Assembly: GCA_043821645.1 (NCBI GenBank)
Contig: JBDRCO010000087.1
Coordinates: 224,001-288,000, forward strand
DNA from: Pseudomonadota bacterium
Lineage (GTDB): Bacteria > Myxococcota > JACRCW01 > JAFGSX01
Direction of reading: 5' to 3'
DNA length: 64,000 nucleotides
Shown here: positions 15,770 to 53,477 of the stretch, in pieces
How positions within the stretch are numbered: the stretch's first letter is position 1
Layout of the letters: each line of letters opens with the position of its first letter
Program-made: the position numbers and the translations under genes
Notes under the pieces: model-generated
The model's input: the letters and a program-made list of their open reading frames with translations, nothing else
What the model was told of the DNA's origin: nothing
Databases searched by the model: none

Positions 15770-15770
<1 letters not shown>

Positions 15771-18436: not shown

Positions 18437-18456
18437 GGATTCCTCGTCGTACCCGG

Positions 18457-35371: not shown

Positions 35372-35540
35372 TCTGGCTCGGGATGCTCGTGTTCGCGGCC
35401 TCGGCAGCTCGCCTCCAGACCTCCCCCCTCCTATAAAAAATTCTGATAGCTCGCCCGCAAGGTCGTGCTTGCCCATGATGATGCACCGTGTTATCCCGGC
35501 GCCAGCCTCGGAGGTGGAGCCTCGGCAAGCAGGAGCGGGT

Positions 35541-36259: not shown

Positions 36260-36263
36260 GACC

Positions 36264-37064
36264 ATGCCTCACGGTGTCACCTGGTTTCACTTCCTGCCTG
36301 GCTTCAACCAGCTGCGCGACTATTTCCACCACACCTGGGAGCAGAGCGCCCTGGTGGGGTCCAAGGATTTCCTGATCCAGCACGTGCTGGGCGCCATCCT
36401 GGTGCTCATCGTGTTGATGATCCTGTCGCTCATGGCACGCAGCCGGCTCAAGGACCTCGAGAAGAACATCGTCCCCGACGGCAAGTTCGGCGTGTTCTCG
36501 TTCTTCGAGATGGTGATCGAGACCGTCTACAACATGATGAAGGACGTCATTGGCCCCGACGCCAAGCGCTACTTCCCGCTCATCGGGACCCTCGCGCTGT
36601 ACATCTTTTTCTGCAACGCGCTGGGTCTGGTGCCGGGTTTCGACCCGCCGACCAACAATGTCAGCACCAACGCCGCCTGCGCCCTGACCGTGTTCCTGTA
36701 CTACAACTACCACGGCCTGCGCGTGAATGGCCTGGGCCACATCGCCCACATGGCCAACCCGGTCGGCACCTGGTGGGGCTGGTTCCTGGCACCCATCATG
36801 TTCCCCATCGAGCTCATCGGCCACCTGGCGCGGCCCATGTCCTTGACCCTGCGTCTCATGGGCAACATGACCGGCGACCACGCGGTGGTGCTGGGCTTCG
36901 CCGCCCTGGTGCCCTTCCTGGTTCCCATCCCCTTCCAGATCCTGGGCCTGCTGGTCTGTGTGATCCAGGCCATGGTGTTCTGTCTGCTGACCATGGTGTA
37001 CATCGGCCTCGCGGTCGAGGAGCAGCACCACGGTGGCGAAGAGGAGCACGCGCACGCCCACTGA
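36264..37064 (+). CDS. atpB: F0F1 ATP synthase subunit a
   Basis: ARPMSLTLRLMGNM; IQAMVFCLLTMVYI. Confidence 0.97.
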   Translation: MPHGVTWFHFLPGFNQLRDYFHHTWEQSALVGSKDFLIQHVLGAILVLIVLMILSLMARSRLKDLEKNIVPDGKFGVFSFFEMVIETVYNMMKDVIGPDAKRYFPLIGTLALYIFFCNALGLVPGFDPPTNNVSTNAACALTVFLYYNYHGLRVNGLGHIAHMANPVGTWWGWFLAPIMFPIELIGHLARPMSLTLRLMGNMTGDHAVVLGFAALVPFLVPIPFQILGLLVCVIQAMVFCLLTMVYIGLAVEEQHHGGEEEHAHAH

Positions 37065-37202
37065 GCGCGGCGCCGTGACGACGAGGTTCGAATTAACCTG
37101 CAAGGGGTCGTGCCCAGCGGGACGGTGACAGGTAGAGACGGGAGAGGCATCCAAGCACGACACTGCGCAGCTTGACGCGCCCATGGGCGCCTGGAGAGAG
37201 CG

Positions 37203-37514
37203 ATGCTGAAGAAGACACTGGTGGTGGTGGCGAGCATGATGGTGGCGGCGTTGGCCATGGCCGAGGGCGGCGCTGGTGGCAGCGAGAACAACGCGTGGTA
37301 CGCCATGGCGGCGGCCTTCGCGATCGCCCTGCCTGCTTTTGGTGGAGCCTTCGGTCAGGGCCGTGCGGCTGCGGCCGCCCTCGAGGGCATCGCCCGCAAC
37401 CCGGGCGCCGCGGGCAAGCTGTTCGTCCCGATGATCCTGGGCCTCGCCCTCATCGAGTCCCTGGTGATCTACGGCCTGGTGATCGCCTTCGTGATCTCGG
37501 GCAAGATCGCGTAA
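37203..37514 (+). CDS. atpE: F0F1 ATP synthase subunit c
   Basis: GQG..ARNP loop; LIESLVIY with the essential Glu. Confidence 0.97.
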
Positions 37515-37537
37515 CGATCGATTCTTTTCTGATGACG

Positions 37538-37570
37538 AAGAAGCCCCGGCATGTCCGGGGCTTTTTTTTT
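37538..37570 (+). terminator. Intrinsic terminator after atpE (probably bidirectional)
   Basis: AAGCCCCGG-CATGT-CCGGGGCTT followed by a T-run. Confidence 0.9.
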
Positions 37571-37581
37571 ATGGGGGGACG

Positions 37582-38622
37582 TCAGTCCTCGGTCTCGTCG
37601 CGACTCTCGTGATAGCGGAAGGTGCTCTCGATGTAGCGTGTGCTGATCTTGCCGCGGCCGGACAGGTCCTTGATCTGATCCAGGATGCGGTCCTGCAAGC
37701 GGAGCACGCGCGCGGGCTCCCAGGCTCCGAACTCCTTGGCCTTGGCCAGGTACTCCTCGAGCAGGCGGCCGTGGGCGCGCGGGAAGCGCTGTGACAGCTG
37801 GCGTACGATGTCGCGGTCCTCGAGCATCATGGCGTTGCTCAGCTGGTAGAGCCCCGCCTTCTGGAACAGCTCGTCGGTGTTCTGGAAGTTGACCAGGACG
37901 CGCGCCAGGAACTTCTGTGCCGCTTTGAGTTCCATGGCATCGCGCCTGGTGACCTTCTTGACCGCGACGATGAGTTCCTCGGCGTTCTCGCGCGGCAGAC
38001 GTCTGAGCAGCTCGGCCAGGGCGCGCTTGCCCACGGAGACGAAGGCGCAGGCCAGCTCCTCGACCCCCAGGGCGCGGGTGAGCTGGATCAGCTCGCGCGC
38101 CTCCAGCGCCACGATCTCCTTGAAACCGAAGCTCTTGAGATCGCGCGGCACCTCCATGAGGGCGAACTTGGCGTCGAAGTGCTCGCGCACCAGGCGCACG
38201 ATCTCCATGGGCACGTCTCGCAGCTCGTTGCGCGGTGGCAGCGCCTGGCGCACGCCCGGGGGCAGCCGGCTCACGATCTGGCGCGTGATCGACGACGGCA
38301 TGTGCATGAGAACCATGGCGATGACGCGTGGTTTCTCACCGCGAAAACCCGCCAGCAACCACGACGGATCCACACCTTCGAGCCGGTGCTGCGAGCGCAC
38401 CGACATCATGCGCCGGATCTCTCGCACCAGCAGCGACAGCCGCTGCTTCTTGGGGATCTCGAGCAGCCTGTCCACGAAGCTGTTCAGGTTCTCGGCGACC
38501 GTGTCAGGCAGGTACTCGAACAGCTCCCTGGCCTCGTGGCCCGAGAAGAACATCGACGACATCAGGAGCATGGCGTCGCGCCGCCCGAGGGTGCCGTAGA
38601 TCTCTTGAAACAGGGAACTCAC
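37582..38622 (-). CDS. FliG-like (SctK-position) C-ring adaptor
   Basis: VDPSWL..F.GEKPRVIAMVLMHMP resembles the FliG EHPQxxAxxL motif; all-helical; directly after sctJ. Confidence 0.7.
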   Translation of the reverse strand: MSSLFQEIYGTLGRRDAMLLMSSMFFSGHEARELFEYLPDTVAENLNSFVDRLLEIPKKQRLSLLVREIRRMMSVRSQHRLEGVDPSWLLAGFRGEKPRVIAMVLMHMPSSITRQIVSRLPPGVRQALPPRNELRDVPMEIVRLVREHFDAKFALMEVPRDLKSFGFKEIVALEARELIQLTRALGVEELACAFVSVGKRALAELLRRLPRENAEELIVAVKKVTRRDAMELKAAQKFLARVLVNFQNTDELFQKAGLYQLSNAMMLEDRDIVRQLSQRFPRAHGRLLEEYLAKAKEFGAWEPARVLRLQDRILDQIKDLSGRGKISTRYIESTFRYHESRDETED

Positions 38623-38636
38623 GGTGTTTCGGAGAC

Positions 38637-39566
38637 TCAGCCGCCGTTGGGCGTGGGCAGCTCACCACCGCCGCGGGCCTTCTTGTACGACAGGTTCTCG
38701 GCCAGGGCCTTGCGCAGCTGCCGCTTGAGGCCGATGCGCCCGAGCAGGAACACCATGGTCAGGATGAGCAGCACCACTACCAGGCCGCCCAGCACTGCGA
38801 GCAGCGAGAAGAACTTGGTCATGTTGGTCTTGGTCGACACCAGCTCGACGCCGATGATCTTCTTGGTGGGAGGGCAGGCCACTGCCCCGGCGGTGCCGCC
38901 GCCCGAGGCCGGCTGCGGACAGTCCGCGGCCCCCCCTGCGCGCAGCAGGGTGGACCACGGTCGCTGCTTGTAGCTGAGCACCGTGACCCGGTCCGGGGTC
39001 ATGTCCTCGACGCTGGCCGCCACGGCCTTCTGGATGTCCTCGACGTTGTAGGGCAGCTTGCCGTCAAAGGGCGCGTACACGATGATCACGCTGGCCATGG
39101 GCTGAGGCCGGGCGGCGTTGACGTCGCGCACTGCCTCCTTGTCCGGGATCACGATCTGCGCGTGGACGTCGAGCACCCCAGGGATGAGCTTGATCTTCTT
39201 CTCGATCTCGCCCTGGATGCCGACCAGCATCTTGGCTTTTTCCTCACTCTGGGTCGGGATCATGCCGCCCTCGGCAAAGACCTCGGACAAACGCAGGGAG
39301 CGCGGCTGCGGCAGCTCGTAGTCAACCAGGGTGCGACGCGCGTCGGCGGCGTACTTGGACGGAACGGTCACCTTCCAGGTCACCACGCGGCCTTCCTCGG
39401 CATCCTTGCGGGCCGGGATGTCCTTGGTCTCCAGCACCACCAGGATGGCGTTGGCCTCGCGCTCGTCGAGACCGTGCACGATCTCGTTCTCGCCGCAGGC
39501 ACTGGCGAGCATCGCCAACCCCAGCGTGGCGACGAGAACCGGTCCAGTTGGCAGTGCGCGCTTCAT
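38637..39566 (-). CDS. sctJ: T3SS inner-membrane ring lipoprotein SctJ (YscJ/FliF family)
   Basis: Lipobox ASAC; HGLDEREANAIL; GGMIPTQSEEK; IPGVLDVHAQIVIP; ASV; C-terminal TM. Confidence 0.92.
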   Translation of the reverse strand: MKRALPTGPVLVATLGLAMLASACGENEIVHGLDEREANAILVVLETKDIPARKDAEEGRVVTWKVTVPSKYAADARRTLVDYELPQPRSLRLSEVFAEGGMIPTQSEEKAKMLVGIQGEIEKKIKLIPGVLDVHAQIVIPDKEAVRDVNAARPQPMASVIIVYAPFDGKLPYNVEDIQKAVAASVEDMTPDRVTVLSYKQRPWSTLLRAGGAADCPQPASGGGTAGAVACPPTKKIIGVELVSTKTNMTKFFSLLAVLGGLVVVLLILTMVFLLGRIGLKRQLRKALAENLSYKKARGGGELPTPNGG

Positions 39567-39573
39567 GGCGACC

Positions 39574-41769
<2,196 letters not shown>

Positions 41770-41861
41770 CGTCAACTCGATGTCATGGACTGGGCACGTC
41801 CCCGATCGCATCTGCCCTCGTCGCATGACCTCGTCACTCGACGGGCTATCGGGAAAGCCGC

Positions 41862-41890
41862 ACGTTAGAGAGGGGTGGCCCCCCTGTCAA
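41862..41890 (-). promoter_or_regulatory. sigma70-type promoter of the GT39-sctJ-fliG-like unit
   Basis: TTGACA-N17-TAACGT. Confidence 0.6.
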
Positions 41891-41912
41891 GGCCGCCAGG
41901 CACCGAACCTTG

Positions 41913-42341
41913 TCAGATCTCGGGCATGTCCAGCAGGTTGATGCCCGTCCCGGCATCCGCCCGGCGATCGACCCGGCCAGGCAAGGCGGTCAGGTGGACC
42001 TCGACGGTCACCGCCACCACGGCGGAAAAAAGGTGGCCCGAGAGGCAGCCAAGGTTCTCGTCGCCGAGCACCACGTGGGCATGCACGAAGGGCGCCCCGT
42101 CGAGCATCGAGATGTTCCCGGCCAGGTGGATCAGCTCGTAATCGCCGTCCAGACGGCGCCGGTCGTAGCGCTTCTCCGCCACGTGAAAATAACCGAGCTC
42201 GACCTCCCTGAGCGCTCCGATGGCGACCAGGGCCGCGCTCTCGATGTGGTGCCGGCGCGCGAAGTCGCTCAGGGCGTCGAGCAGGGACGCGTCCTTGTCG
42301 ACCCGAAGCAGGTAGCCCAGCTCGGTGCGCAGGCCTCTCAT
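41913..42341 (-). CDS. PPC/DUF296 domain protein
   Basis: AIGAL..V.LGYF; ELIHLAGNIS; PFVHAHVVLG..GHL; ATG after GGAGG. Confidence 0.9.
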   Translation of the reverse strand: MRGLRTELGYLLRVDKDASLLDALSDFARRHHIESAALVAIGALREVELGYFHVAEKRYDRRRLDGDYELIHLAGNISMLDGAPFVHAHVVLGDENLGCLSGHLFSAVVAVTVEVHLTALPGRVDRRADAGTGINLLDMPEI

Positions 42342-42441
42342 GATGTCCACCTCCTCGTCGTTTGCTCGCCCGGAGGCTGAGCACTACACTGTCCCGTATC
42401 CGCCGTCAGCTCTCGACGCTGCGGACGCTGGAGGTCGCGTG

Positions 42442-43740
42442 TTGCACCCTGATCCTTCATCCTCCACCCCGGTGCGCATCGTCCGCCGGGGTTCCGGGGT
42501 CCTCGCCGGTGCGCTGTTCGGCCTGGTGGTGGGCATCCTGCTCGGCGCGGCGGCCCCGGCCCTGTCCCGGGACCCGGATCGCTCGTACCGGAGCTTGCGC
42601 ATCTTCAGCCAGGTCTTCAACTACATCGAGAACAACTACGTCGACAGCATCGAGCAGAAGACGCTGGTCTACGGCGCCATCGTCGGCATGATGGGGACCC
42701 TGGACCCGTACACCGTCTTCCTGCCACCGGACCAGTACCAGAAGATCAAGGAGGACACGACGGGGGAGTTCGGCGGCCTGGGCATCGAGATCGGTCTCAA
42801 GGACGGATGGCTCACCATCATCGCGCCCATCGCGGATTCGCCGGCCGCCCGCGCCGGATTGAAGAGCGGCGATCGCATTATCGCCATCGAGGGCAAGACC
42901 GCCGAGGGGGTGTCGGTGGCCGACTCGGTGGCCCTGCTGCGAGGTCCGCCCAACACCCGCATCACGCTCACCGTGCAGCGCGATGGCTGGGACGCACCTC
43001 GGGACGTGGCCCTGGTACGGCAGAAGCTTCGCCTCAATCCTGTCGAGGACCGCATGCTGCAGGCCGGGCTTGGCTATGTCCGCATCAAGAGCTTTCAGGA
43101 ACGTACCGAGCACGAGCTCAAGAAGGCCCTGGACCGGCTGACGCGGCAGGCGCGCGAGGCGGGACGCGAGGGGCTCGAGGGCCTGGTGCTCGATCTCCGC
43201 GACAATCCAGGCGGACTGGTCGACGAGGCCGTGCGCGTCTCGGATCTGTTCTTGGACAGTGGCGACATCGTCACCACCGAGGGCCGCAATCGCCGCCACG
43301 TCGAACGTCAGGTCGCGCACCGTCGCGGCACCCAACCGCGCTATCCCGTGGCTGTGCTGGTCAACGAAGGTTCTGCCTCGGCGTCGGAGATCGTGGCCGG
43401 AGCGCTGCAAGATCACGCGCGCGCCGTGGTGGTAGGACAGCGCTCGTTTGGCAAGGGCTCGGTGCAGACCATCATCGAGCTCGATGACGGCAGCGGACTC
43501 AAGCTGACCGTGGCGCGCTACTTCACGCCCAGCGGCCGCTCGATCAACGAGCACGCCATCGACCCGGACCTCGTGGTCCCCCCCCTGGCGGGCGAGATCA
43601 CCCTTGACAGCGGTGGCGGCGCTGACCGGGGCGAGATCGAGGACGCCCAGCTGCTGGCGGCCATCGAGGCTCTGCGGGGAGGGGTGCCGGTGGGTCCGCC
43701 TGCCACCTCGCGAGACCCGTCCCGGCGAAACCCGGGCTGA
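42442..43740 (+). CDS. S41 family C-terminal processing protease (CtpA-like)
   Basis: PDZ (FGGLGIEI); DLRDNPGG; SASASE; FGKGSVQ; start uncertain. Confidence 0.95.
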   Translation: MHPDPSSSTPVRIVRRGSGVLAGALFGLVVGILLGAAAPALSRDPDRSYRSLRIFSQVFNYIENNYVDSIEQKTLVYGAIVGMMGTLDPYTVFLPPDQYQKIKEDTTGEFGGLGIEIGLKDGWLTIIAPIADSPAARAGLKSGDRIIAIEGKTAEGVSVADSVALLRGPPNTRITLTVQRDGWDAPRDVALVRQKLRLNPVEDRMLQAGLGYVRIKSFQERTEHELKKALDRLTRQAREAGREGLEGLVLDLRDNPGGLVDEAVRVSDLFLDSGDIVTTEGRNRRHVERQVAHRRGTQPRYPVAVLVNEGSASASEIVAGALQDHARAVVVGQRSFGKGSVQTIIELDDGSGLKLTVARYFTPSGRSINEHAIDPDLVVPPLAGEITLDSGGGADRGEIEDAQLLAAIEALRGGVPVGPPATSRDPSRRNPG

Positions 43741-43916
43741 GCGGCGGCCAGGAGGTCCCCGCAGGCCACTGGCGGCGATTGGTCTCTTTCTTGGCGTGTG
43801 GTACAAGATCATTGTAGAAGGGGCGGATGGGTCCAGCTCGAGATCGCTGGCTGCGATCTCGGCGGGTGTCGCGTGCTGCGGACTGTGAATGAGCGCGCAC
43901 GCCCCGGAGTACATGC

Positions 43917-45938
43917 ATGGTGGCTCAGTCTGGCCAGGCCACGCCGCGCATTCAGCTCGTCATCGAGGATGATGAGGGCAAGCGCATGGCCATCCCGCTG
44001 ACGCGGGACGAGATCACCATCGGCCGCAAGGACGGCAACATCATCCGTCTGACCGAGCGCAACGTGTCGCGCTTTCACGCGCGATTGCTCAAGCAGAACG
44101 CGATCTTCTACATCGAGGACCTCAACTCCTACACCGGCATCCGCATCAACGGTGATCGCATCGCGGGTCGAAACCAGATCCAGGAAGGCGATCTGATCGA
44201 GATCGGCGACTATCACCTGACCCTGCAACGCGAGGGGCAGCAGGCGCTCGAGGGCGAGGCCACGACGCGCGAGGCTCTCTCCGGCACCACCGAAGAGACC
44301 GTCAAGATGCAGATCGAGCCGTTGCCGGAGCAGACCATCCGCGCACCGGCACCGCCAGTAGCGTCGGAGACCGTCGCGCCGGCCGCCCCCAGTGAGGCCG
44401 CGGCGCGCGCCGAGCCAACAGCCCTCATCCGACCCGATCAGATGGAGGGCGCGCACGAGAACGCCCTCGGGGACATCCCCGAGCACGAGCGCGCGCATCT
44501 GGTGGCCGTGTCGACGGCTCTGGTCGGGCAGAGCTACCCTCTCAAGAAACGCGAGAGCGTGATCGGGCGCACCGACGAGAATGACGTGGTGCTAGACCAC
44601 CGCTCGGTCTCCCGCAACCACGCCAAGATCGTCTACGACGGACAGAAGTACACGGTGGTGGACCTCAAGAGCGCGAACGGCGTTCTGGTCAATGGCGAGG
44701 AGTACAGCCAGACCGCGCTACGGCCCGGCGACATCGTTGAACTCGGGCACGTGCAGCTGCGCTTCATCGAGCCCGGTGGGCGCTTCGAGCTCAGTGCCGA
44801 GGACGTCGAGCGGATCAAGGCCGAGGCCCAGCAAGCCGAGGTCGCGGCCGAGAGCAAGGGGCCGGCCACGGTGACCACCGCGCGCTTCGACCGCGGCCCC
44901 CTGGACCAGGAACTGGCCAAGCGCACCAAGCTCATCGCCATCGCCGCCGCGGCGCTGCTGTTTCTCCTCGGCATCGTCGTGATCGCGATGGTGTTTGGCG
45001 GTGGCGACGACAAGCCCACGACCACGCCCGGCGACACCCCGCCGGTGGACGGCGTCCCGGTGGTGGTGGATCTCCCCGTCGACACGCCCCCGGACCCGGT
45101 GGAGACGTCTCTCACCGACGCGCAGGTTGCCGAGCTGCTCACCCAGGTCGATGGGCACCTGCAGGCGGGGCGCTTTGACGAGGCCGACCAGACTGTCGGC
45201 AAGGTCCTCAAGGCGCGTCCTGATGACGAGGCCGCCCAGGATCTGCTCGAGAAGGTGGTGACCGAGCGCCGCGCCAAGGAGGACTTCGCTGCCGCCGAGG
45301 CCGACGAGAATGCCGGTCGTCTCGAGGAGGCCCTGGCCAAGTTCAGCTCGGTTCCTGCGGGCACCCTGTACCGTGAACGTGCGGTCAAGCATGCCAGCGG
45401 CGTGCGCGGCAAGCTGGTCGCCGAGCACTACGAGAAGGCCAACAGGGCTTTCAGCGAGGATGACTTCGAGGGCGCCAAGGCCGAGATCGAGGCGGGCCTG
45501 GTGCTGGTCTCCAACGACCGCAAGCTGCTCGATCTGCAGCAGCGCGTCGTCGCACTCGAGGAGCGCCTGGCCGCTGCCGGCGATCCCGACGACGGCAAGA
45601 CGGGCAAGACCCCCAAAAAGCCCAAGAAGCCCAAGAAACCGCCCTCCACCAAGCCCGAGACCAATCCCGAGGACGCCAAGAACTTTTACTCGGCGGGCAA
45701 CAAGCAGATCCTGCAAGGGCGCTTCAAGGAAGCGGTGGACCAGTTCAAGCTCGCCCTCAAGGCGGATCCCGGCTTCGCCGATGCGCACCGCGGCCTCGGC
45801 ATCGCCTATGCCCGGCTGGGCAAGGCGGACCTCGCGGTCAAGCACTACGAGACCTATGTGCAGAAACGACCCTATGCCTCCGACGCGGACAAGGTTCGCG
45901 AGATCCTCAAGAAGTTCAAGCAGAACGCACCCAAGTAG
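43917..45938 (+). CDS. Tandem-FHA, single-TM, periplasmic TPR protein
   Basis: Two FHA domains (IGR..VSRFHA..NG; IGR..VSRNHA..SANG); one TM; TPR helices (AHRGLGIAYARLG). Confidence 0.9.
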   Translation: MVAQSGQATPRIQLVIEDDEGKRMAIPLTRDEITIGRKDGNIIRLTERNVSRFHARLLKQNAIFYIEDLNSYTGIRINGDRIAGRNQIQEGDLIEIGDYHLTLQREGQQALEGEATTREALSGTTEETVKMQIEPLPEQTIRAPAPPVASETVAPAAPSEAAARAEPTALIRPDQMEGAHENALGDIPEHERAHLVAVSTALVGQSYPLKKRESVIGRTDENDVVLDHRSVSRNHAKIVYDGQKYTVVDLKSANGVLVNGEEYSQTALRPGDIVELGHVQLRFIEPGGRFELSAEDVERIKAEAQQAEVAAESKGPATVTTARFDRGPLDQELAKRTKLIAIAAAALLFLLGIVVIAMVFGGGDDKPTTTPGDTPPVDGVPVVVDLPVDTPPDPVETSLTDAQVAELLTQVDGHLQAGRFDEADQTVGKVLKARPDDEAAQDLLEKVVTERRAKEDFAAAEADENAGRLEEALAKFSSVPAGTLYRERAVKHASGVRGKLVAEHYEKANRAFSEDDFEGAKAEIEAGLVLVSNDRKLLDLQQRVVALEERLAAAGDPDDGKTGKTPKKPKKPKKPPSTKPETNPEDAKNFYSAGNKQILQGRFKEAVDQFKLALKADPGFADAHRGLGIAYARLGKADLAVKHYETYVQKRPYASDADKVREILKKFKQNAPK

Positions 45939-45974
45939 CGCCCCGCTGGTGATGTCCGGAGCCCTCCACCTGTC

Positions 45975-46004
45975 CTGACAGCGCAGCCAGGGGTGCGCTA
46001 TAGT
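45975..46004 (+). promoter_or_regulatory. Possible sigma70-type promoter of sctN
   Basis: CTGACA-N18-TATAGT. Confidence 0.4.
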
Positions 46005-46048
46005 CAAGGAGACTGGCCGAACGTGGCGGCAAGGTCGGAGACGCGGAC

Positions 46049-47392
46049 ATGGCGCAGGCGGGCAAGGTGCTGGATCTGGCCAAATACCTCGAGGAGATCG
46101 AGGAGGTCTCGACCGTGCACGTGCGCGGCCGGGTCACCGAGGTCACCGGCCTGATCATCACCGCGGCCGTGCCCGGGGTGTTCCTGGGTGAGATGTGCTA
46201 CATCGAGAGCGCCCACTCGTCGATCCGGCTCAAGACCGAGGTGGTGGGGTTCAAGGACGAGGCTGTGTACCTGATGCCCCTGGGCGAGCCCCGGGGCATA
46301 GGCCCCGACTCCATCGTGGTGCCCACGGGCAAGCCCTTCAGCATCAAGTGCGGCTACGGTCTGCTGGGCCGGGTCATTGGCGGCACCGGCGAGCCCATCG
46401 ACGGCGGCACGCCCCTCGAGGACATCCCCGGCCTCGAGGACTGGGCGGTGGAGCGCTCGGCCCCGGATCCCTACACCCGCCAGCCCGTGGACCGCGTGAT
46501 CTCCTTCGGGGTGCGCGCCTGGGACGGCCTGCTCACCGTGGGCCGCGGCCAGCGCGTGGGCCTGTTCGCCGGTTCCGGCGTCGGCAAGTCGACGCTCATG
46601 GGGCAGATCGCCCGCCAGTGCTCGGCCGAGATCGTCGTCGTCAACCTGGTCGGCGAGCGTGGTCGCGAGGTGCTGGAGTTCATTCACGACTCCCTGGGCG
46701 AGGAGGGCCTGGCGCGCAGCGTGGTGGTGTGCGCGACCTCCAACGAGTCCAGCCTGGTGCGTCTCAAGTCCTGCTACGTCGCCACGGCGGTCGCCGAGTG
46801 GTTCCGGGATCAGGGCAAGGACGTGCTGTTCATGATGGACTCGTCGACGCGCTTTGCCCGCGCCCAGCGTGAGATCGGCCTGGCCCTGGGCGAGCCGCCC
46901 GCGCGCCAGGGCTTTCCGCCCAGCGTGTTCGCCTTGATCCCGCGGCTGATGGAGCGCACCGGCAACAACGACAAGGGCTCGGTCACCGCGCTGTACACCA
47001 TCCTGGTGCAGGGCGGCGACATGGAGGAGCCCATCGCCGACGAGGTGCGCGGTATTCTCGACGGTCACGTGATCCTCAACCGCGACCTCGGCGCGCGCAA
47101 CCATTGGCCGGCCATCGACATCCTGCCCAGCCTGTCCCGCGTCATGACCGGCATCGTGTCGCCGGAGCACAAGAAGGCCGCCAGCAAGCTGCGCGAGGTG
47201 CTGGCGTCCTACGAGAAGAACCGCGACCTGATCCTGCTCGGCGCCTACCAGTACGGCTCCGATCCCAAGGTGGACTACGCCATCGACAAGATCGAGGAGG
47301 TCGAGGAGTTCTTGAAGCAGGGCACCAAGGACCAGAACGACTTCGACGACACCGTGCAGCGCATGGTCGAGCTGTTCTCGGATGCCGAGTGA
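46049..47392 (+). CDS. sctN: T3SS ATPase SctN (FliI/YscN)
   Basis: GLFAGSGVGKS; GERGREV; MDSSTRFARAQREIGL; DEVRGILDGH; GAYQYGSDP. Confidence 0.96.
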   Translation: MAQAGKVLDLAKYLEEIEEVSTVHVRGRVTEVTGLIITAAVPGVFLGEMCYIESAHSSIRLKTEVVGFKDEAVYLMPLGEPRGIGPDSIVVPTGKPFSIKCGYGLLGRVIGGTGEPIDGGTPLEDIPGLEDWAVERSAPDPYTRQPVDRVISFGVRAWDGLLTVGRGQRVGLFAGSGVGKSTLMGQIARQCSAEIVVVNLVGERGREVLEFIHDSLGEEGLARSVVVCATSNESSLVRLKSCYVATAVAEWFRDQGKDVLFMMDSSTRFARAQREIGLALGEPPARQGFPPSVFALIPRLMERTGNNDKGSVTALYTILVQGGDMEEPIADEVRGILDGHVILNRDLGARNHWPAIDILPSLSRVMTGIVSPEHKKAASKLREVLASYEKNRDLILLGAYQYGSDPKVDYAIDKIEEVEEFLKQGTKDQNDFDDTVQRMVELFSDAE

Positions 47393-47527
47393 CGACGAGG
47401 AACAAACGACGTTTGCCCCGCGGAGCAACCGCGAAGAGGCGTTCTTGACTGCGCTGCCGGGGGGGGAATGGCGACGGGTTCACTCTGTCGGTAGAAGGGG
47501 GCGGGCCGGCCGTCCCCTGGGAAAGAA

Positions 47528-48025
47528 ATGAAGCTCCCTGACTACCGCCTGCAGACTCTCTTCAACCTTCGCGAGAAGGCCAAGAAGGCGGCCGAGGATG
47601 CCTATGCCGAGGCCCAGAAGGAGATGGCCGCGGAGCAGGCGCGGCTCGACGAGATGAAGGCTGAGCTGGCCGCCAAGGTCGAGTTCCGCGAGGGCAAGCG
47701 CCACGAGTACGCCGAGAAGGCCAGCCGCGGCGAGATGAACGTGCACACCATGACCTCGAGCCAGCGCCACATCGAGCGGCTCAAGGAAGAAGAGGCGGCC
47801 TACGAGGTCGAGATCGACAAGCAGCGCGAGCGTCTGCACGAGGCCGAGAAGGTGGTGGAGAAGAAGCGCGAGGAGATGGTTGTCGCCAACCGCGACTTCA
47901 AGGCCCTGGAGAAGCACAAGGAAAAGTGGGCCAAGAAGACCAGGCGCGAGATCATGCTCAAGGAGGAGGATGCCGCCGAGGACATCGCCCAGGCCCAGTT
48001 CTTGGCGCGTCAGCGAGGTAATTGA
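47528..48025 (+). CDS. sctO: T3SS stalk protein SctO (FliJ-like)
   Basis: YRLQTL..LRE start; charged coiled coil; KALEKHKEKW; follows the ATPase. Confidence 0.8.
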   Translation: MKLPDYRLQTLFNLREKAKKAAEDAYAEAQKEMAAEQARLDEMKAELAAKVEFREGKRHEYAEKASRGEMNVHTMTSSQRHIERLKEEEAAYEVEIDKQRERLHEAEKVVEKKREEMVVANRDFKALEKHKEKWAKKTRREIMLKEEDAAEDIAQAQFLARQRGN

Positions 48026-48142
48026 CGGGGTGCGTCATGGGGTGGGAGCGGCATCCGCAACAGGCGCTGCCGCGGGACCGATAACGGTCGGAGAGCGGTA
48101 AAGTATTGCACCGCGGTGGTCTGTCACCGACGAGGGGTCAGG

Positions 48143-49084
48143 ATGGAAAAGCTCAATGTCAGCAACAAGCAAGCGACCACCAATACGAACCAGGCCGACG
48201 AGGCCGCCAAGGCGCCAGCGAAGACAGACTTCGCGCAGCTGTTGCAGCAGAAGGCCGGCGAGAACGCGCAGCAGACAGCAGGCCAGCAGGCTACCAGCCA
48301 GGCACGGGGCCAGCTGCAGCAGCATGCAGGTCGCGCGGCCATGAACCAGAGCGCGCAAGGAGCTGCCATGAGTCAGGCCAACCAGCAGGCCGCTGCCAAC
48401 GCCATGCCGCGAACCATGAAACCCATGGTGCAGAACCCGCATCTGGCCAAGGTGCAGCAGGCGACCAAGCAGTTCGACCAGCAGCTGGCCCAGGCCAAGC
48501 AGAGCACCGTCGAGGGACAGAAGGTGATGGGCGACATCCGCAGCGAGGCCAAGGCCCAGGACCTGACCCGCTCGGCGGATCGCAGCACGGACACCACGCG
48601 CGCCGAGGTGCGCAGCGAGGTCAACCGTGGCGTCGGCAAGGAGATGGCCGTGGATTCCAAGGTCCGCGCCGAGGCTCAGCAGCAAGCCATGCGCAACCTG
48701 CAGGGCAACCGCACGGCGCTGCGCGATTCCGCGATCCATGGTGTCGGCAGCGTCGGCGAGTCGGGGCGCAACCAGGCAGCGGCCGAGGTCAAGGGCGCAC
48801 GCAAGCCGCAGGAGATCCCGCAGGAGATCCTGGACAAGCTGGTCGAGGAAGTGCGGGTGGGTGTCAACGAGAACGGTCAGAGCGAGTTCCAGATCGATCT
48901 CAAGGACGGCGTGCTGCAGGGCATGAGCCTCAAGGTCACGGCCGAGAATGGCAAGGTCAACTGCCAGTTCATCGGTGGTGATAACAGCGCCAAGAACTTC
49001 ATCGAGTCGAGCCAGGGTGCCCTGGCCCGCGCCCTCGAGGGCAAGGGGCTGAGCCTCGATCGCCTGAGCGTGGCCACAGCCTGA
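48143..49084 (+). CDS. FliK/SctP-like ruler or substrate-switch protein
   Basis: Gln/Ala-rich disordered N-terminus; C-terminal T3S4-like domain (EFQIDLK..L.GMSLKV..ENGKV..F..L..AL.GKGL). Confidence 0.7.
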   Translation: MEKLNVSNKQATTNTNQADEAAKAPAKTDFAQLLQQKAGENAQQTAGQQATSQARGQLQQHAGRAAMNQSAQGAAMSQANQQAAANAMPRTMKPMVQNPHLAKVQQATKQFDQQLAQAKQSTVEGQKVMGDIRSEAKAQDLTRSADRSTDTTRAEVRSEVNRGVGKEMAVDSKVRAEAQQQAMRNLQGNRTALRDSAIHGVGSVGESGRNQAAAEVKGARKPQEIPQEILDKLVEEVRVGVNENGQSEFQIDLKDGVLQGMSLKVTAENGKVNCQFIGGDNSAKNFIESSQGALARALEGKGLSLDRLSVATA

Positions 49085-49155
49085 TCCGCGCGTCCCGGGA
49101 CGCTTCCCCCTAAAAAAATGCCTTCTGAAACCGCCTGGTTCCCGGCGGCCACCCA

Positions 49156-49184
49156 TTGACACTCCGGGGGGTGACCCATAGGCT
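49156..49184 (+). promoter_or_regulatory. sigma70-type promoter of sctQ-fliO-sctRST
   Basis: TTGACA-N17-TAGGCT. Confidence 0.65.
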
Positions 49185-49286
49185 TTGCGGCTCGCTGGCC
49201 GCGGTGTGCATACGGCCCGAAGCGGACGTGTGTCGTCGAGACGCAGACCGTGCCGGGCAGGCGCGCAGAGAAAAAGGCAAGGACCC

Positions 49287-50825
49287 ATGGCACGGGACAT
49301 CCGTCCCTTCAAGTTCGGCTCCCTCGAGCGCTGGACGCGGCCACAGCTGCGCGTGCTCGAGACTTTGCAGGCCTACCTGCCGGCGTCGCCCTTCACACCT
49401 GGTTTCAAGGACAAGCTGCGCGGTGTGCTACAGCCCTACCTCAACTGCGATCTCGACGTGTGGCTGGACGCCATGATGCCCAGCACCGGCGAGGCGATCC
49501 TGAAACAGCTGCCCAAGTCCACGCTGGTGGCGGTGCTCGGCATGCCCCCCGAGCCACACAAGATCCTGGTCGAGTTCGACGTGTCCCTGGCCACGATGTG
49601 TGTGGACCGGGTGCTCGGTGGCAAGGGCGAGGATGGTGCCGGGCAGACCCCTCTGACCGAGATCGAGCAAGGGGTGTTCGCCTTTCTGGTGCTCAAGGTG
49701 CTGCATCTGCTGCGCGGCGAGTGGGGAGACGAGGCGCGCACAGCGCTCAAGCTCGAGGCCTTTCGCTCCTCGGCAGATACCCTGGTCGACGACATCAAGC
49801 GGGACATGGGCTACTTCACGCTGGGCTTCAAGCTGTTCTTTGACCTCAGCGTGGGCTTCGCGCGCATGTCCCTGCCGGTGGAACTCATCGCCTCGCAGTT
49901 CAACTTCAACATGGACCCCGATGGCCCGGTGGCGCGTCGGCGTCGCGATCTCATGCGCGGGGCCTGGCACCGCCTGGACGGCGTGCGCGCGCCCCTGGTC
50001 ATCGAGGCCGGGCGCAGCGAGCTGGCACCCGACGACGTGGCCAACCTCGAGGTCGGAGACATCATCCTGATCGAGGAGACCGGCCTGACCCTCGACGGCG
50101 ACAACCTGAGCGGTTCGGTGCGGGCTCGCCTGGGCGCCGGCAGCCATGGCGTGGTCGAGGGCGAGGTGCAGACCGATGACAGCGGGCGGCTGCAGCTCTC
50201 GATCGCCGACATCGTGCAGGTGGGCGAACCAGATTCCGAGGACGACGACGAGACCGCACCGGGCGAGGACGACGACGACGACGACGACGAGGATGAGGAG
50301 AATGAGGTCCTTGGTCCGTCGAGGAGATCTGCCATGAGCACGCATCGCCGAGCCGAGAGCATCGCCCGCACCGTGGCCGCCCAGGGCCTGGACCCGTTCG
50401 CGCCCGAGGGTGATGAGGCCGTGAGCCTGGGGCCCGTTGGCGACGACGACGCCCTGGACGATCTGCGCGATGGCACCGAGCACGATGACGACGATGAGGA
50501 AGAATACGAAGACGACGAGGAGGAAGAAGAAGAGGAGGAGGAGGAGGAAGAAGAAGAAGAAGAGGAGGAGGGGGCGGAGCCTGACAACCTGCAAGGCACC
50601 GAGAATCTCCTGCATGACCTCTCTGTTCACCTGGTGGTCGAGCTGGGTCGCGTCAAGATGTCGGCCACGGACGTCGTCAACCTGCGCACCGGCATGGTGC
50701 TCGAGCTCAAGCGCACGCCACATGACCCCGTGGATCTGGTGGTGCAAAACCGCCTGATCGGCAAGGGCGAGCTGGTCGAGGTCGAGGGCTCGCTCGGCGT
50801 GCGGCTGATCAGCCTGGCGAAATGA
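49287..50825 (+). CDS. sctQ: T3SS cytoplasmic ring protein SctQ (FliM/FliN-like)
   Basis: FliM-like middle domain (VDRVLGG..PLTEIEQ); two SPOA domains (LEVGDII; VELGR..GKGELVEVEGSLGVRL) separated by an acidic linker. Confidence 0.9.
   Translation: MARDIRPFKFGSLERWTRPQLRVLETLQAYLPASPFTPGFKDKLRGVLQPYLNCDLDVWLDAMMPSTGEAILKQLPKSTLVAVLGMPPEPHKILVEFDVSLATMCVDRVLGGKGEDGAGQTPLTEIEQGVFAFLVLKVLHLLRGEWGDEARTALKLEAFRSSADTLVDDIKRDMGYFTLGFKLFFDLSVGFARMSLPVELIASQFNFNMDPDGPVARRRRDLMRGAWHRLDGVRAPLVIEAGRSELAPDDVANLEVGDIILIEETGLTLDGDNLSGSVRARLGAGSHGVVEGEVQTDDSGRLQLSIADIVQVGEPDSEDDDETAPGEDDDDDDDEDEENEVLGPSRRSAMSTHRRAESIARTVAAQGLDPFAPEGDEAVSLGPVGDDDALDDLRDGTEHDDDDEEEYEDDEEEEEEEEEEEEEEEEEEGAEPDNLQGTENLLHDLSVHLVVELGRVKMSATDVVNLRTGMVLELKRTPHDPVDLVVQNRLIGKGELVEVEGSLGVRLISLAK
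50232..50570 (+). repeat. Asp/Glu low-complexity tracts in sctQ
   Basis: GAC/GAT/GAG/GAA runs; 18 consecutive Glu codons at 50517-50570. Confidence 0.9.
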
Positions 50826-51466
50826 TGGAGCCTGTGCGCGCCAGGACGAGGTGCGGGCGCCCTGCTATCGCAGCGTGGTGTGCCCAAGGCATTCTTGTCG
50901 CCGGGATGCTGGCGCTGTGGCCGGGAGCAGCCCGCGCGGCCATGGCCGAACCGGTGGTCGCTGTGCCGAGGGATGCCGCCGCGGGCGAGGCTGCCGTGGC
51001 AGGGTCACAGCCGGCCCAGGAGCCTCCGTTCCTCGAGGGTCCCGCCGCGGCTCCAGCAACAGGCGAGGCCCCCGACGAGCGCGACGATCCCCGCGGCAGT
51101 ACCGTGACCGCGCTGGTGCGCATGGTGCTGGTGCTGGCAGGCATCATCCTGCTGGCCTACCTGATCCTGCACAAGGGTATGGGGAGCCTGAGCGCGAAGC
51201 TGGCCCAGGGCCGACTGGTGCACGTTGTGGACAGGGTCGGGCTCGAGCCCAAGAAGACCCTGTATGTGGTCGAGATCGCCGGGCGCTACTACCTGATCGG
51301 CACCAGCGACCACGGGGTGTCCTGCCTGGCGACCTTGAGTGGGGACGCGGATCGCAGTGGGTTCGAAAACCTGCTGCGCACGCACCGGGGCGCGGGTCCG
51401 GTCGCAGCAGCGACGGATTCGAAGGCAGACGCTGCGGTCGGGGGCGACGGAGGCCGTCATGGGTGA
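50822..51466 (+). CDS. fliO: FliO/MopB family protein
   Basis: TM then VHVVDRVGLEPKKTLYVVEIAGRYYLIGTSDHGV. Confidence 0.85.
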   Translation: MMEPVRARTRCGRPAIAAWCAQGILVAGMLALWPGAARAAMAEPVVAVPRDAAAGEAAVAGSQPAQEPPFLEGPAAAPATGEAPDERDDPRGSTVTALVRMVLVLAGIILLAYLILHKGMGSLSAKLAQGRLVHVVDRVGLEPKKTLYVVEIAGRYYLIGTSDHGVSCLATLSGDADRSGFENLLRTHRGAGPVAAATDSKADAAVGGDGGRHG

Positions 51467-52280
51467 ACGGAGACATTCCCGGTGGCAGCGAGGGTTGCGC
51501 TGGCAGGGTCTGCCGTGGCTGGTTGGCCTCGCCGGTGTGCTGCTGAGCAGCGAGGTGCTGGCCAAGGCCGCGGCCAAGGGTGTCGACGCCGTGGACCTGC
51601 TGGCGCGCGACTCGGTGGCCAACCGCCCGCTGATCCTGATGGTGGCGCTGTCCGCCATGGCCCTGGTGCCCTTCGTGGGCATGATGGTCACCTCCTTCGT
51701 CAAGATCGCGGTGGTGCTCTCGATCACGCGCCAGGCCATGGGCACCCAGCAGACGCCGCCGACCACCGTGATCACGGGTCTCTCGATCATCCTGACGGTG
51801 TACGTGATGATGCCGGTGGGGCAGGAGGTCTACCGCGTCACCGATGAATACCTGGCGCAGACCAATGCCACCATCCTGGATCCCAAGAACGTGGACCTGA
51901 TCCTGGGGGCCACCAACAAGGCCAAGGAGCCACTCAAGAAGTTCCTGAAGAAGCACGCCCACACCCTGGACCAGCAGATGTTCTACTCGGTGGCCTGGCG
52001 CATGCGCGACCCGGTGGATCGCGTCAACCTGGCGCGCGATGACCTGACGGTGCTGGTGCCGGCCTTCGTGATCAGCGAGCTCAAAGAGGCTTTTCAGATC
52101 GGCTTCATCATCTTCGTCCCCTTCCTGGTCATCGACATGGTGGTGGCCAATATTTTGATGGCCCTGGGCATGGCCATGCTGTCACCGACGACGATCTCGC
52201 TGCCGTTCAAGCTGCTGCTGTTTGTGCTGGTGGATGGCTGGTACCTGATCACCCGCGGTCTGGTGCTGGGTTACCTGTAG
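51459..52280 (+). CDS. sctR: T3SS export gate SctR (FliP)
   Basis: TSFVKIAVV..RQAMGTQQTPP; PAFVISEL..AFQIGF; LPFKLLLFVLVDGW. Confidence 0.96.
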   Translation: MGERRHSRWQRGLRWQGLPWLVGLAGVLLSSEVLAKAAAKGVDAVDLLARDSVANRPLILMVALSAMALVPFVGMMVTSFVKIAVVLSITRQAMGTQQTPPTTVITGLSIILTVYVMMPVGQEVYRVTDEYLAQTNATILDPKNVDLILGATNKAKEPLKKFLKKHAHTLDQQMFYSVAWRMRDPVDRVNLARDDLTVLVPAFVISELKEAFQIGFIIFVPFLVIDMVVANILMALGMAMLSPTTISLPFKLLLFVLVDGWYLITRGLVLGYL

Positions 52281-52298
52281 CGTCACCGGGAGGTCTCC

Positions 52299-52568
52299 AT
52301 GGTCCGGGAGTTCATCGTCCAGGCGACCAACGAGGCCGTGTTCCTAGTCATCGTGCTGTGCGGGCCCGCCCTGATCATCAGCATGGCGGTCGGTCTGGCC
52401 GTTGCCCTGTTCTCGGCGACGACGCAGATCCAGGAGCAGACCCTGAGTTTCGTGCCCAAGATGATCGCCGTGTTCGCGGTGCTGGCGGCCACCGGTTCCT
52501 GGATCGGAGCGACTCTATTTGGATTTGCCCAGCGCCTGCTCGGAGGCTTTGTCGACATCGTGCGCTGA
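52299..52568 (+). CDS. sctS: T3SS export gate SctS (FliQ)
   Basis: ATTQIQEQTLSFVPK. Confidence 0.96.
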   Translation: MVREFIVQATNEAVFLVIVLCGPALIISMAVGLAVALFSATTQIQEQTLSFVPKMIAVFAVLAATGSWIGATLFGFAQRLLGGFVDIVR

Positions 52569-52586
52569 GCGGTCCCTGAAACGAAG

Positions 52587-53402
52587 ATGGAAGAACTCCT
52601 CAACCTGCTGCAGCAGCAAGTCGACTTCACCCGGGCCATCGTCGCCATGGCCCTGGTACTGGCGCGCTTGCTGGTCATCGTGCAGCTGACGCCCTTCCTC
52701 GGCGGCAAGAACGCCCCGCCCGAGGTCAAGATGGGCATCGCCATCGCCCTCAACGTGCTCATCTTTCCGATCGTGTACGGCAAGCTCGACGGGCCCATAC
52801 CGCTGGACGCGGTGAACTTCATCTTCATGATGCTCAAGGAGGTCTTCATCGGTCTGTTCATCGGCTTCATCGGCGCCGAACTTTTTTACGCGGTGGAGAT
52901 GGCGGGACAGTTCATGAACCTGCTCAACGGCACCAACATGGTCCAGATCCAGGTGCCCCAGTTGCAGGAGCGTTCGAGCGCCTTCGGCGACCTCAACTAC
53001 CAGTTGCTGCTGGTGATCTTCCTGGCCTTCAACGGCCACCACATCTTTCTCGACGTCATGTTCCAGAGTTTCGTGGACCTGCCCATCAACCGCTGGCCCG
53101 AGTTCTCGGCCGGCATGTGGCCGCTCATCGACCTCGCCATGCGCATCACCGGCGACCTGTTCTTGATCGCGGTGGGTGTGGCCGCACCCATCGGTATCGC
53201 CTGCCTGATCACGGATATCTCGTTTGGTCTGCTCAATCGCGTCGCGCCCCAGATCAACGCCTACTTCATGGCCATGCCGGCCAAGGCCATGGTCGGCGCC
53301 ATGATGTTCTTCGTGGCCCTGCCGATGATCCTTCAGGTCTACGAGGAGCACTCGATGAACATGCTGGGTCTTGTGCGAGGCGTTCTGATCCTGTTCCGGT
53401 GA
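52587..53402 (+). CDS. sctT: T3SS export gate SctT (FliR)
   Basis: KEVFIG..AVEMAG; GLLNRVAPQIN..AMPAK. Confidence 0.95.
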   Translation: MEELLNLLQQQVDFTRAIVAMALVLARLLVIVQLTPFLGGKNAPPEVKMGIAIALNVLIFPIVYGKLDGPIPLDAVNFIFMMLKEVFIGLFIGFIGAELFYAVEMAGQFMNLLNGTNMVQIQVPQLQERSSAFGDLNYQLLLVIFLAFNGHHIFLDVMFQSFVDLPINRWPEFSAGMWPLIDLAMRITGDLFLIAVGVAAPIGIACLITDISFGLLNRVAPQINAYFMAMPAKAMVGAMMFFVALPMILQVYEEHSMNMLGLVRGVLILFR

Positions 53403-53477
53403 GGGCCTGGCGGTGACACACCGCAGCGGCCGGGACGCGGGCTTGCTCGACGGGGCGGTAGAGGTTTTACTACAGAC

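Follow-up and report, generated by a model that had tools for sequence, protein, structure and literature searches.

Myxobacterial T3SS*, a non-flagellar type III secretion system (NF-T3SS), is seen as a living intermediate between the flagellum and the injectisome. The window analyzed here, a 64,000-nucleotide (nt) stretch of the Myxococcota genome GCA_043821645.1 (G000), carries genes of such a system, and an earlier note made from that stretch alone had described them as a fragmented, secretin-less and needle-less machine, perhaps a predatory one. Do these genes still work together, and if so, as what? We consider it probable, at about 65%, that the window encodes the core of a non-flagellar type III export machine that still works and belongs to the long T3SS* lineage, a judgment made from sequence. 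Its genes are spread over at least eight sites, so the system is far more fragmented than first seen.

The window is G000:C87:224001-288000 (contig JBDRCO010000087.1). G000 comprises 7.07 Mb in 140 contigs and is 94.7% complete, and this scope applies to every genome-wide absence reported below. C-numbers denote contigs of G000, L-numbers loci of relatives, and G-numbers genomes.

The window encodes the core of a type III export apparatus

We chose real genes in the window, whose G+C content is 62-70%, by third-position G+C and scanned them against Pfam and NCBIfam. The T3SS genes named by the earlier note are real, lie where it had placed them, and belong to the expected families (protein lengths in amino acids, aa):

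37582..38622, minus strand: fliG-like gene; 346 aa, soluble; Pfam FliG_M (PF14841) 30.1 bits (cut-off 25), FliG_C (PF01706) 27.9 bits (cut-off 23.3)
38637..39566, minus strand: sctJ, inner-membrane ring lipoprotein; 309 aa; Pfam YscJ_FliF 75.8 bits
46049..47392, plus strand: sctN, ATPase; Pfam ATP-synt_ab and T3SS_ATPase_C
47528..48025, plus strand: sctO, FliJ-like stalk protein; YscO-like 77.3 bits
48116..49084, plus strand: sctP, FliK-like ruler/substrate-switch protein; Flg_hook 27.0 bits, under the 29.8 cut-off
49185..50825, plus strand: sctQ; 546 aa, FliM-like N-terminal part and FliN-type C-terminus; FliMN_C 78.6 bits, FliM 38.4 bits
50822..51466, plus strand: fliO-like assembly factor; Pfam FliO 39.9 bits
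51339..52280, plus strand: sctR; FliP 229 bits
52299..52568, plus strand: sctS; Bac_export_3 90 bits
52587..53402, plus strand: sctT; Bac_export_1 180 bits; followed by an MlaD-like gene

SctJ has a lipoprotein-like signal at its N-terminus and, in a transmembrane (TM) scan, a single C-terminal TM helix at residues 255-273. SctP keeps its position in relatives, where its C-terminus is 38-52% identical, and the structures in the PDB that match SctQ are FliN, FliM, and the C-terminal part of YscQ. Translation of sctR probably begins at position 51459, with an ATG that overlaps the stop codon of fliO.

NCBIfam scores of these proteins fall between the flagellar and injectisome models. SctN scores 595 bits on TIGR02546 (SctN) versus 578 on the best FliI model, SctR 216.6 bits on TIGR01102 (above its cut-off) versus 199.4 on fliP, and SctJ 122 bits on TIGR02544 (below its cut-off of 162) versus 38 on fliF. 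SctQ reaches 103.1 bits on TIGR02551, above the 100.8 cut-off. In SctS and SctT the order is reversed, with the fliQ model at 86.4 bits versus 73.1 for sctS and the fliR model at 140 versus 129 for sctT. As the earlier note had stated, Pfam and NCBIfam scans detected no sctL, sctU, sctV, rod, hook, or flagellin gene in the window; on secretins it needs a correction, as the window contains a GspD gene within a type II secretion system (T2SS) cluster.

The rest of the machine lies elsewhere in the genome

Besides sctV, sctU, and sctL, a search of G000 with every open reading frame (ORF) of the T3SS* cluster of Archangium gephyra located three further sites (C43, C134 downstream of sctU, and C22):

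C70:62073-64310: sctV, between nuo genes and a leucine-rich repeat (LRR) protein gene; TIGR01399 hrcV 823 bits (above cut-off) versus FlhA 688
C134:6213-7277: sctU, near uvrB; TIGR01404 SctU 363 bits, above cut-off
C87:173171-173995: sctL, the second FliH/SctL gene, about 96 kb upstream of sctN; product 34% identical to the A. gephyra T3SS* SctL
C43:101196-103825: module of an LcrH/CdsG-like TPR chaperone, a 125-aa gene, a FliA/WhiG-family sigma factor, and an SctI-like gene
C43:101196-101816: the SctI-like gene of this module; 206 aa; NF038054 20.7 bits versus a cut-off of 39
C134, downstream of sctU: a 158-aa gene, an LcrH/SycD-like chaperone (80 bits versus a cut-off of 104.8), a 421-aa gene, and a 412-aa gene
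C22: a DUF1521 protein gene and then an LcrH-like chaperone, the same pair as in the Archangium cluster

The core genes sctJ, N, Q, R, S, T, U, and V are therefore all present in G000, but they do not form one contiguous cluster with conserved order. T3SS* genes occupy three places on C87 as well as C70, C134, C43, and C22, and five more sites hold paralogs of a needle-like protein described below. The neighbors of sctL are ackA, an Omp85-like gene, uppS, and cdsA. The C43 module preserves the order found upstream of sctJ in Archangium. Its SctI-like gene is not adjacent to sctJ in G000, but the product has 33-56% identity to ORFs found immediately before sctJ at more than 40 loci of relatives. 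FliA/WhiG is the top-scoring family for the C43 sigma factor (TIGR02479, 153.9 bits versus a cut-off of 189.6), for the sigma factor of the Archangium cluster (110.5), and for the flagellar FliA of G000 (184.4).

Some of the genes at these sites are candidate cargo. G000 has two DUF1521 proteins, one at C22:57470-59663 with the LcrH/SycD-like chaperone next to it and one at C23:70440-71417; the homologous pair in the Archangium cluster lies at L126:8006-9419. In NopE1, a type III effector of rhizobia, DUF1521 is the domain that cleaves itself; we regard these proteins as candidate substrates of the machine. Convergent with sctV, an 825-aa LRR protein is encoded at C70:64493-66970 (minus strand); its LRR part resembles Xanthomonas XopAE, XopAC, and XopL, with scores well below their cut-offs.

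The genome-wide check for rod and hook genes proposed by the earlier note did find them, within a flagellar locus on C86 that is self-sufficient. This locus encodes flagellins, FliD/S, FlgB, C, D, E, F, G, I, and A, FliF, G, H, and I, MotAB, FliM, N, O, P, and Q, FlhB, A, F, and G, and FliA, with its own FliPQR counted. Mobilization genes (NikA/MobC-like and a relaxase) lie at C86:59084-61415, a few kb from its end. Of the two FHIPEP and two FlhB-family genes in G000, one of each belongs to C86, and no rod, hook, filament, or stator genes occur in the window or beside sctU, sctV, or sctL. Because the rod and hook genes sit in a complete locus of their own, the window system is a second, separate machine.

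Could it nevertheless be a second export set serving the flagellum? The FliG-like, FliM-like, FliO, and FliK-like genes, the slight advantage of the FliQ and FliR models over SctS and SctT, and a promoter motif like that of flagellin would fit such a role. However, the C86 locus needs no help, SctV, SctU, SctR, SctJ, and SctN all score higher on Sct than on flagellar models, SctV falls outside the FlhA clade, and the same system exists in non-flagellated Myxococcaceae (no FlgE in G014 or G118). We assign this idea next to no probability.

A dispersed member of the long T3SS* lineage

Among 600 candidate stretches, 535 encode a relative. Within the best 80, which we kept, identity to the window SctN is 80% for uncultured Myxococcota and 65-67% for Archangium and Myxococcus; identity to the organism's own FliI is 41%. 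In a tree of SctV and FlhA (17 rows, a quick IQ-TREE search on a single gene, no bootstrap), the C70 protein falls inside the long T3SS* clade, with a Shimodaira-Hasegawa-like approximate likelihood ratio test (SH-aLRT) value of 98. That clade lies within a non-flagellar clade (99) that also holds injectisome references and a second myxobacterial type, while the C86 protein belongs to the FlhA clade (99). These data bear out the proposal that the window holds a rearranged member of a Myxococcota lineage without a secretin, surrounded by housekeeping genes (atp, uvrA, rpsP-trmD-rplS). From its sequences, the system is very probably a functional, dispersed member of the known long myxobacterial T3SS* lineage.

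The closest described counterpart is the T3SS* of M. xanthus (mxan_2434-2464), the long "Myxo" NF-T3SS of Abby and Rocha 2012, which has the same gene set. Besides the level of SctN identity and the shared SctV clade, the two have in common the lack of an own secretin and the presence of a FliA-like sigma factor with LcrH-like chaperones. Intermediate relatives share the order sctI-like, sctJ, fliG-like, sctL, sctN, O, P, Q, fliO, R, S, T, U. Unlike the M. xanthus system, which forms one cluster of about 30 genes, that of G000 is distributed over its many sites, its sctJ and fliG-like genes are inverted and joined to a glycosyltransferase gene, no Tad/Kil partner was found, a full flagellum is present, and the needle-like family comprises seven long paralogs.

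To describe the relatives, we counted the 46 loci of 15 kb or more, leaving out FHA matches below 150 bits and S41, PMT_2, MlaD, and PCC matches below 100 bits. The colinear order sctJ, fliG-like, (sctL), sctN, O, P, Q, (fliO), R, S, T, U is found in 27 of them; in A. gephyra, sctV follows about 13 kb further downstream. Other relatives, the nearest among them, are dispersed. In L014, L018, and L022 (genomes G003, G004, and G005), sctN stands alone among unrelated housekeeping genes, yet it is 80% identical to the window SctN and the same genomes still hold an hrcV-type SctV of 826-834 bits. The arrangement S41-FHA/TPR-sctN-sctO is kept in four relatives' loci (L015, L020, L021, and L024), and the trio PMT_2-sctJ-fliG-like is repeated in the same-class genome G005 (L139), the sole same-class relative with a readable flank. 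By these comparisons, scattering is a trait of the lineage and not an accident of G000.

Dispersal of this kind might also be expected of a decaying relic, pieces left from a lost cluster that no longer cooperate. The broken cluster and the lone sctN of several relatives suit that idea, as does the one other genome of the same family (82% complete), in which SctV gave no match; in addition, the M. xanthus loci were once annotated as relics, according to the available text of Abby and Rocha (PMC3459982). Yet every core gene is present with an open frame, a promoter motif is common to separate loci, and SctN remains 80% identical among relatives with differing neighbors. Moreover, of 401 sampled genomes of the phylum with a completeness of 80% or more, 213 have an hrcV-type SctV above cut-off, a count that includes G000 and the unpublished genome G189 (212 of 400 without the latter). 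The earlier note had held that absence of sctU and sctV from the whole genome would imply a relic; both are present (C134 and C70), and because they exist the system is not a relic by this test. We consider decay very unlikely. Nonsynonymous to synonymous rate ratios (dN/dS; Nei-Gojobori, nearest relatives) were 0.09-0.87 for T3SS* genes and 0.52-0.64 for the neighboring S41 and PMT_2 genes, but we draw nothing from them, given saturation at synonymous sites and a G+C content of about 90% at third positions.

No dedicated secretin or Tad partner found

G000 encodes only two secretins, the GspD of the T2SS and the PilQ of a pilMNOPQ cluster. We found no third secretin that could be dedicated to the T3SS, which upholds the description of the system as secretin-less. 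The GspD gene and its cluster lie in the window about 18 kb from the T3SS* genes:

15770-19180, minus strand: GspD secretin, 1136 aa
4651-19563, minus strand: T2SS cluster with a PDZ protein (GspC-like), GspD, GspE, GspF, pseudopilins G-K, a PilM/GspL-like gene, and GspM

In M. xanthus, the T3SS* is recruited by Kil and needed for prey lysis, as the available portion of PMC12075869 reports, and the earlier note had inferred that the homologous system here might likewise be a contact-killing machine working with a Tad/Kil pilus. No such pilus was found in G000. There is no TadB/C-type platform, the only matches to PF00482 (T2SSF) being PilC and GspF; CpaB (TIGR03177) gave no match, versus 189-190 bits in two Myxococcaceae controls; and the two secretins belong to other systems. 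Because no Tad/Kil parts were found, pairing with Tad for predation is unsupported here, and we hold this reading to be extremely unlikely.

In 33 hand-picked SctV-positive genomes from 20 families, the FlgE_D2 hook domain is present in 20, and CpaB is above cut-off in 12 but not in the other 21; these counts are illustrations rather than frequencies, because the genomes were chosen by their SctV result. The hook occurs without CpaB in G000, and CpaB without the hook in both Myxococcaceae (G014 and G118). T3SS* and Tad occur together only in Cystobacterineae, according to the available sections of PMC10849154. Our counts fit such a restriction and show T3SS* by itself to be far more widespread.

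Candidate needle and rod subunits

The T3SS* has been regarded as needle-less. Reviews that cover Thiery et al. 2022 state in their available text (PMC10849154, PMC12075869) that it lacks a needle homologue, and the excerpts at hand of Abby and Rocha 2012 (PMC3459982) describe the Myxo systems as lacking SctF and FliG, both of which "should have been found". The same excerpts give a model that predicts an ancestral periplasmic structure based on SctF. That paper, in the part available, was also the only one returned by a full-text literature search for SctF in Myxococcus T3SS. At the level of the genome, the label needle-less given by the earlier note does not hold well: outside the window we identified the SctI-like gene and seven proteins with SctF-like C-termini, all below curated cut-offs.

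The 421-aa C134 protein has paralogs on C94, C69, C82, and C123 (363-436 aa), C23 (633 aa), and C139 (650 aa). All seven end in ...SN(V/I/M)(M/L)K..(H/N)D(M/T)QM.A(V/I)RNLR. Relatives' T3SS* loci contain two classes of gene with such an end. Class A genes (about 175-230 aa) lie upstream of the chaperone-sigma-sctI block; 32 loci pass the pattern, and in two of these (L066 and L069) the gene is downstream of sctU instead. Class B genes (72-240 aa) follow sctU. The T3SS* cluster of Archangium gephyra has at least six identical 72-aa reading frames in tandem, each with the needle-like helix at its end. These frames lie at L126:10215-11468, L126:17399-18073, and L059:20170-20844, and the hexamer CCGATA stands just upstream of several.

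Profile searches connect these C-termini to needle proteins. Profile A2, built from 31 C-termini, was searched against all 177,635 distinct PDB sequences at E values up to 10; it gave 18 matches, in which T3SS needle proteins, some of them as fusions, take the first 12 places (best, a 43-residue chain of 7y6c, E 4.4e-4; PrgI, 0.0068; MxiH, 0.2). With profile A3, built from the seven G000 paralogs and six class B proteins, needle proteins make up the first 14 of 15 matches, and PrgI is found at E 1.1e-4 in an alignment that spans the turn and extends to the last residue. As single fragments, 14 of the 31 match PF09392 with scores that stay under threshold (best E 6.3e-4); every other family is matched by two at most. 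Six weak matches to PF09392 occur genome-wide, four of them SctF-like C-termini and one the SctI-like gene. Look-alikes in the ESM Atlas, which serve as leads only, include Myxococcota clusters with 11-17% PF09392 members and one NolX-carrying cluster (score 0.78).

Compared with true SctF proteins (PrgI, MxiH; PF09392), the last approximately 50 residues align end to end, including the turn and the pattern S-N-x-x-K...D...N-x-R. The candidates differ in scoring below the Pfam cut-off and in their length of 170-650 aa, which includes Gly-rich linkers and additional domains at the N-terminus; the exception is the group of 72-75-aa forms encoded at Archangium and Myxococcus loci. Tentatively, and at slightly less than even odds, we propose that T3SS* is not needle-less. 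Clusters across Myxococcota, including those of Archangium and Myxococcus, would encode SctF-family subunits and a FliG-like adaptor; G000 would have seven such subunits, with sigma-28-like late promoters and a scattered regulon, and the lineage would be the survivor of the predicted ancestral NF-T3SS, with a periplasmic SctF-based filament and no secretin.

Alternatively, the machine may be truly needle-less and end at the inner membrane, with the SctF-like-tailed, DUF1521, and LRR proteins as periplasmic cargo that is then released through the T2SS of the window, in vesicles, or on lysis. Abby and Rocha, in the available part of PMC3459982, proposed export that crosses no more than the inner membrane. 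The lack of a dedicated secretin, the length and large N-terminal domains of the SctF-like proteins, and a T2SS cluster only 18 kb away all accord with this proposal. It accounts poorly for a conserved C-terminal helix that aligns end to end with the polymerizing helix of PrgI and MxiH, and for the tandem identical copies in Archangium, which have the size of needle subunits. An SctI-like rod gene and a FliK-like ruler have also been kept, which is sensible only if a structure of measured length is built. We therefore think a machine without any needle unlikely, although we give it some weight.

A FliG-like adaptor

The second part reported as missing, FliG, also has a candidate; no FliG homologue in Myxococcus T3SS is reported in the available text of PMC3459982 or PMC9380563. 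(The hat-like structures of PMC9380563, which in its available sections were not seen in M. xanthus, have no bearing on this system.) Searched against the PDB as a single sequence, the FliG-like protein of the window gave nothing significant (FliG, E 0.26). It has 102 relatives, and when 39 homologues were combined into a profile, FliG accounted for the top 12 of the 15 PDB matches, the best at E 7.6e-10. The full-length model TIGR00207 fliG scores 25.8 bits, far under its cut-off of 226.7. Synteny of the gene with sctJ is preserved at 27 of those 46 loci of relatives, and the Archangium counterpart (527 aa) is also above the FliG_C cut-off.

From these likenesses, the protein is probably a cytoplasmic adaptor joining SctJ and the SctQ ring. 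Because it occurs together with a FliM-like SctQ and FliO, its presence suggests that the cytoplasmic part follows the flagellar plan (FliG-FliM/N) and not the injectisome plan (SctD-SctK-SctQ).

A sigma-28-like promoter signature

The earlier note had the two T3SS blocks driven by separate sigma-70-like promoters. A consensus scan of positions 37000-54000 does not sustain this as a count, with two sites versus 1.1 +/- 1.1 in shuffles, but one of the two lies just before sctN. The note overlooked a different motif, before sctP:

45975..46004, plus strand: sigma-70-like promoter candidate CTGACA-18-TATAGT upstream of sctN, matching 10 of 12 consensus positions
48057..48083, plus strand: sigma-28-like motif GCAAC-N16-CCGATA, ending 33 nt before the sctP start codon

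By eye, sites like TTGACx-N17-TAxxxT precede sctV, sctU, sctN, sctQ, PMT_2-sctJ, and the sigma factor gene; only the sctN site was called by the tool. The sigma-28-like pattern GCAAC-N15-17-CCGATA has nine matches on both strands of the whole genome, and six of them precede T3SS*-linked genes by 20-75 nt: sctP, the SctI-like gene, the 158-aa and 421-aa genes of C134, and the paralogs of the latter on C69 and C94. Seven permuted control patterns gave one to five matches each. The flagellin promoter of G000 has the classic form, TCAAG-N15-GCCGATA. On the plus strand of 33 relatives' loci, the hexamer CCGATA occurs 34 times; 14 occurrences lie within -200 to +150 nt of the start of a needle-like gene, 5 within 0.9 kb upstream of sctJ, and 15 elsewhere.

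Neighboring genes and other features of the window

Four genes separate the two T3SS blocks:

39574..41826, minus strand: PMT_2/ArnT-like GT-C glycosyltransferase; 750 aa, about 14 TM helices; PMT_2 33.6 bits
41913-42350, minus strand: PCC-domain gene, heading the row PCC, PMT_2, sctJ, fliG-like
42325-43740, plus strand: S41 protease, between the minus-strand block and the FHA/TPR gene
43917..45938, plus strand: 2xFHA-TM-TPR protein, directly upstream of sctN; 673 aa; FHA 116 bits, Yop-YscD_cpl 101 bits

These belong to non-T3SS families, as first described, but not all of them are foreign to such loci, since the linkage of PMT_2 and of S41/FHA-TPR recurs in relatives. Gaps on the minus strand are 86 nt (PCC to PMT_2), 7 nt (PMT_2 to sctJ), and 14 nt (sctJ to fliG-like), and PMT_2 probably shares a transcript with sctJ. 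The glycosyltransferase is a possible part of the machine.

The 2xFHA-TM-TPR protein has the topology of SctD, with one TM helix at about residues 338-361 in a TM scan, but its periplasmic part is made of TPRs, and its match to TIGR02500 (E 1.9e-4) covers the FHA part only. The gene precedes sctN in L015, L020, L021, and L024 but not in L014, L018, or L022. A role as a dedicated T3SS* part is unproven, given a family of 1316 Myxococcota homologues and linkage in one sub-lineage only; the protein probably just neighbors the system. A second candidate for SctD, a tail-anchored 2xFHA protein on C107, was ruled out, as it has no periplasmic domain. This protein, which has an acidic linker, is paired with a TPR protein at C107:14887-17236 (minus strand) and at L126:2226-4436; the pair adjoins sctV in Archangium and is detached in G000, and the FHA proteins are 42% identical.

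Elsewhere in the window, the membrane sector only of an F-type ATPase (AtpZ-like, AtpI-like, and a and c subunits) is encoded at 35469-37514 (plus strand), with alpha/beta-like ATPase genes about 36 kb from this operon on the same contig (C87:308-312 kb). A TubZ-like GTPase of the tubulin/FtsZ family with a C-terminal HEAT repeat is encoded at 61109-62773 (plus strand), between trmD, an RNA methyltransferase gene, and rplS. A 427-aa multihaem c-type cytochrome at 56468-57751 (minus strand) fits an anaerobic or metal-respiring life of this groundwater-type Myxococcota genome.

How the machine may work and what it means

In the working machine that we favor, SctJ would form the inner-membrane ring around an SctRSTUV gate, with FliO helping, and a flagellum-style cytoplasmic assembly of the FliG-like protein, the FliM/FliN-like SctQ, SctL, SctN, and SctO would supply substrates. 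Structural genes would be transcribed from housekeeping-type promoters, and the exported parts (the SctP ruler, the SctI-like rod, and the SctF-like proteins) from sigma-28-like promoters, as in the flagellar hierarchy, probably read by the system's own FliA-like sigma factor. The rod-like and needle-like subunits would be exported to the periplasm, where they may build a short filament. Because there is neither a dedicated secretin nor a Tad pilus, passage through the outer membrane, if any, must take another route.

Several observations weigh against this interpretation. The SctF-like, SctI-like, and FliA-like assignments are all below curated cut-offs, the best PF09392 score in G000 being 16.4 bits versus 29.4. 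In hhalign comparisons, profile A2 gave P 0.055 against AscF, one Ysc-type needle protein, and 0.34 against AscI. The SctF-like proteins of G000, at 363-650 aa, are far above needle-subunit size; at that length they may serve as secreted cargo instead of building a filament. The genome yielded neither an SctD-type ring protein nor SctK. Finally, G000 has two FliA paralogs, both candidate readers of the sigma-28-like motif, and the enrichment of six in nine is partly post hoc because the motif was chosen after inspecting these upstream regions.

Two known systems help to place the machine. The NF-T3SS of Chlamydiales and Hamiltonella are likewise complete systems spread over several loci, as the available part of PMC3459982 describes, but they have their own secretin, needle, and translocon, act on eukaryotic hosts, and belong to another clade. 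The flagellar export apparatus, with its late hierarchy under FliA (sigma-28), is similar in its FliG-, FliM/FliN-, FliO-, FliK-, and FliJ-like parts and in the sigma-28-like motif before exported parts. The window system differs from a flagellum in having no rod, hook, filament, or stator genes, SctJ in place of FliF, and gate proteins outside the flagellar clade. Relative to the literature, the apparent novelty lies in the extent of the scattering, the presence of a flagellum and absence of Tad alongside it, and the sigma-28-like regulon signature. The candidate SctF-like and FliG-like parts would be new as well and, on sub-threshold evidence, would apply to the whole lineage including M. 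xanthus.

These results bear on how a machine without a needle or an outer-membrane pore delivers anything. Because the lineage is widespread and is often accompanied by a flagellum but no Tad pilus, the basic job of T3SS* is unlikely to be tied to Tad-dependent predation. G000 suggests that the genes of a T3SS* can function while dispersed, as a regulon unified by a sigma factor and promoter of flagellar type, and detectors that rely on gene clusters would miss such a system. The candidate needle and rod subunits and the FliG-like adaptor are concrete genes for study in the tractable M. xanthus.

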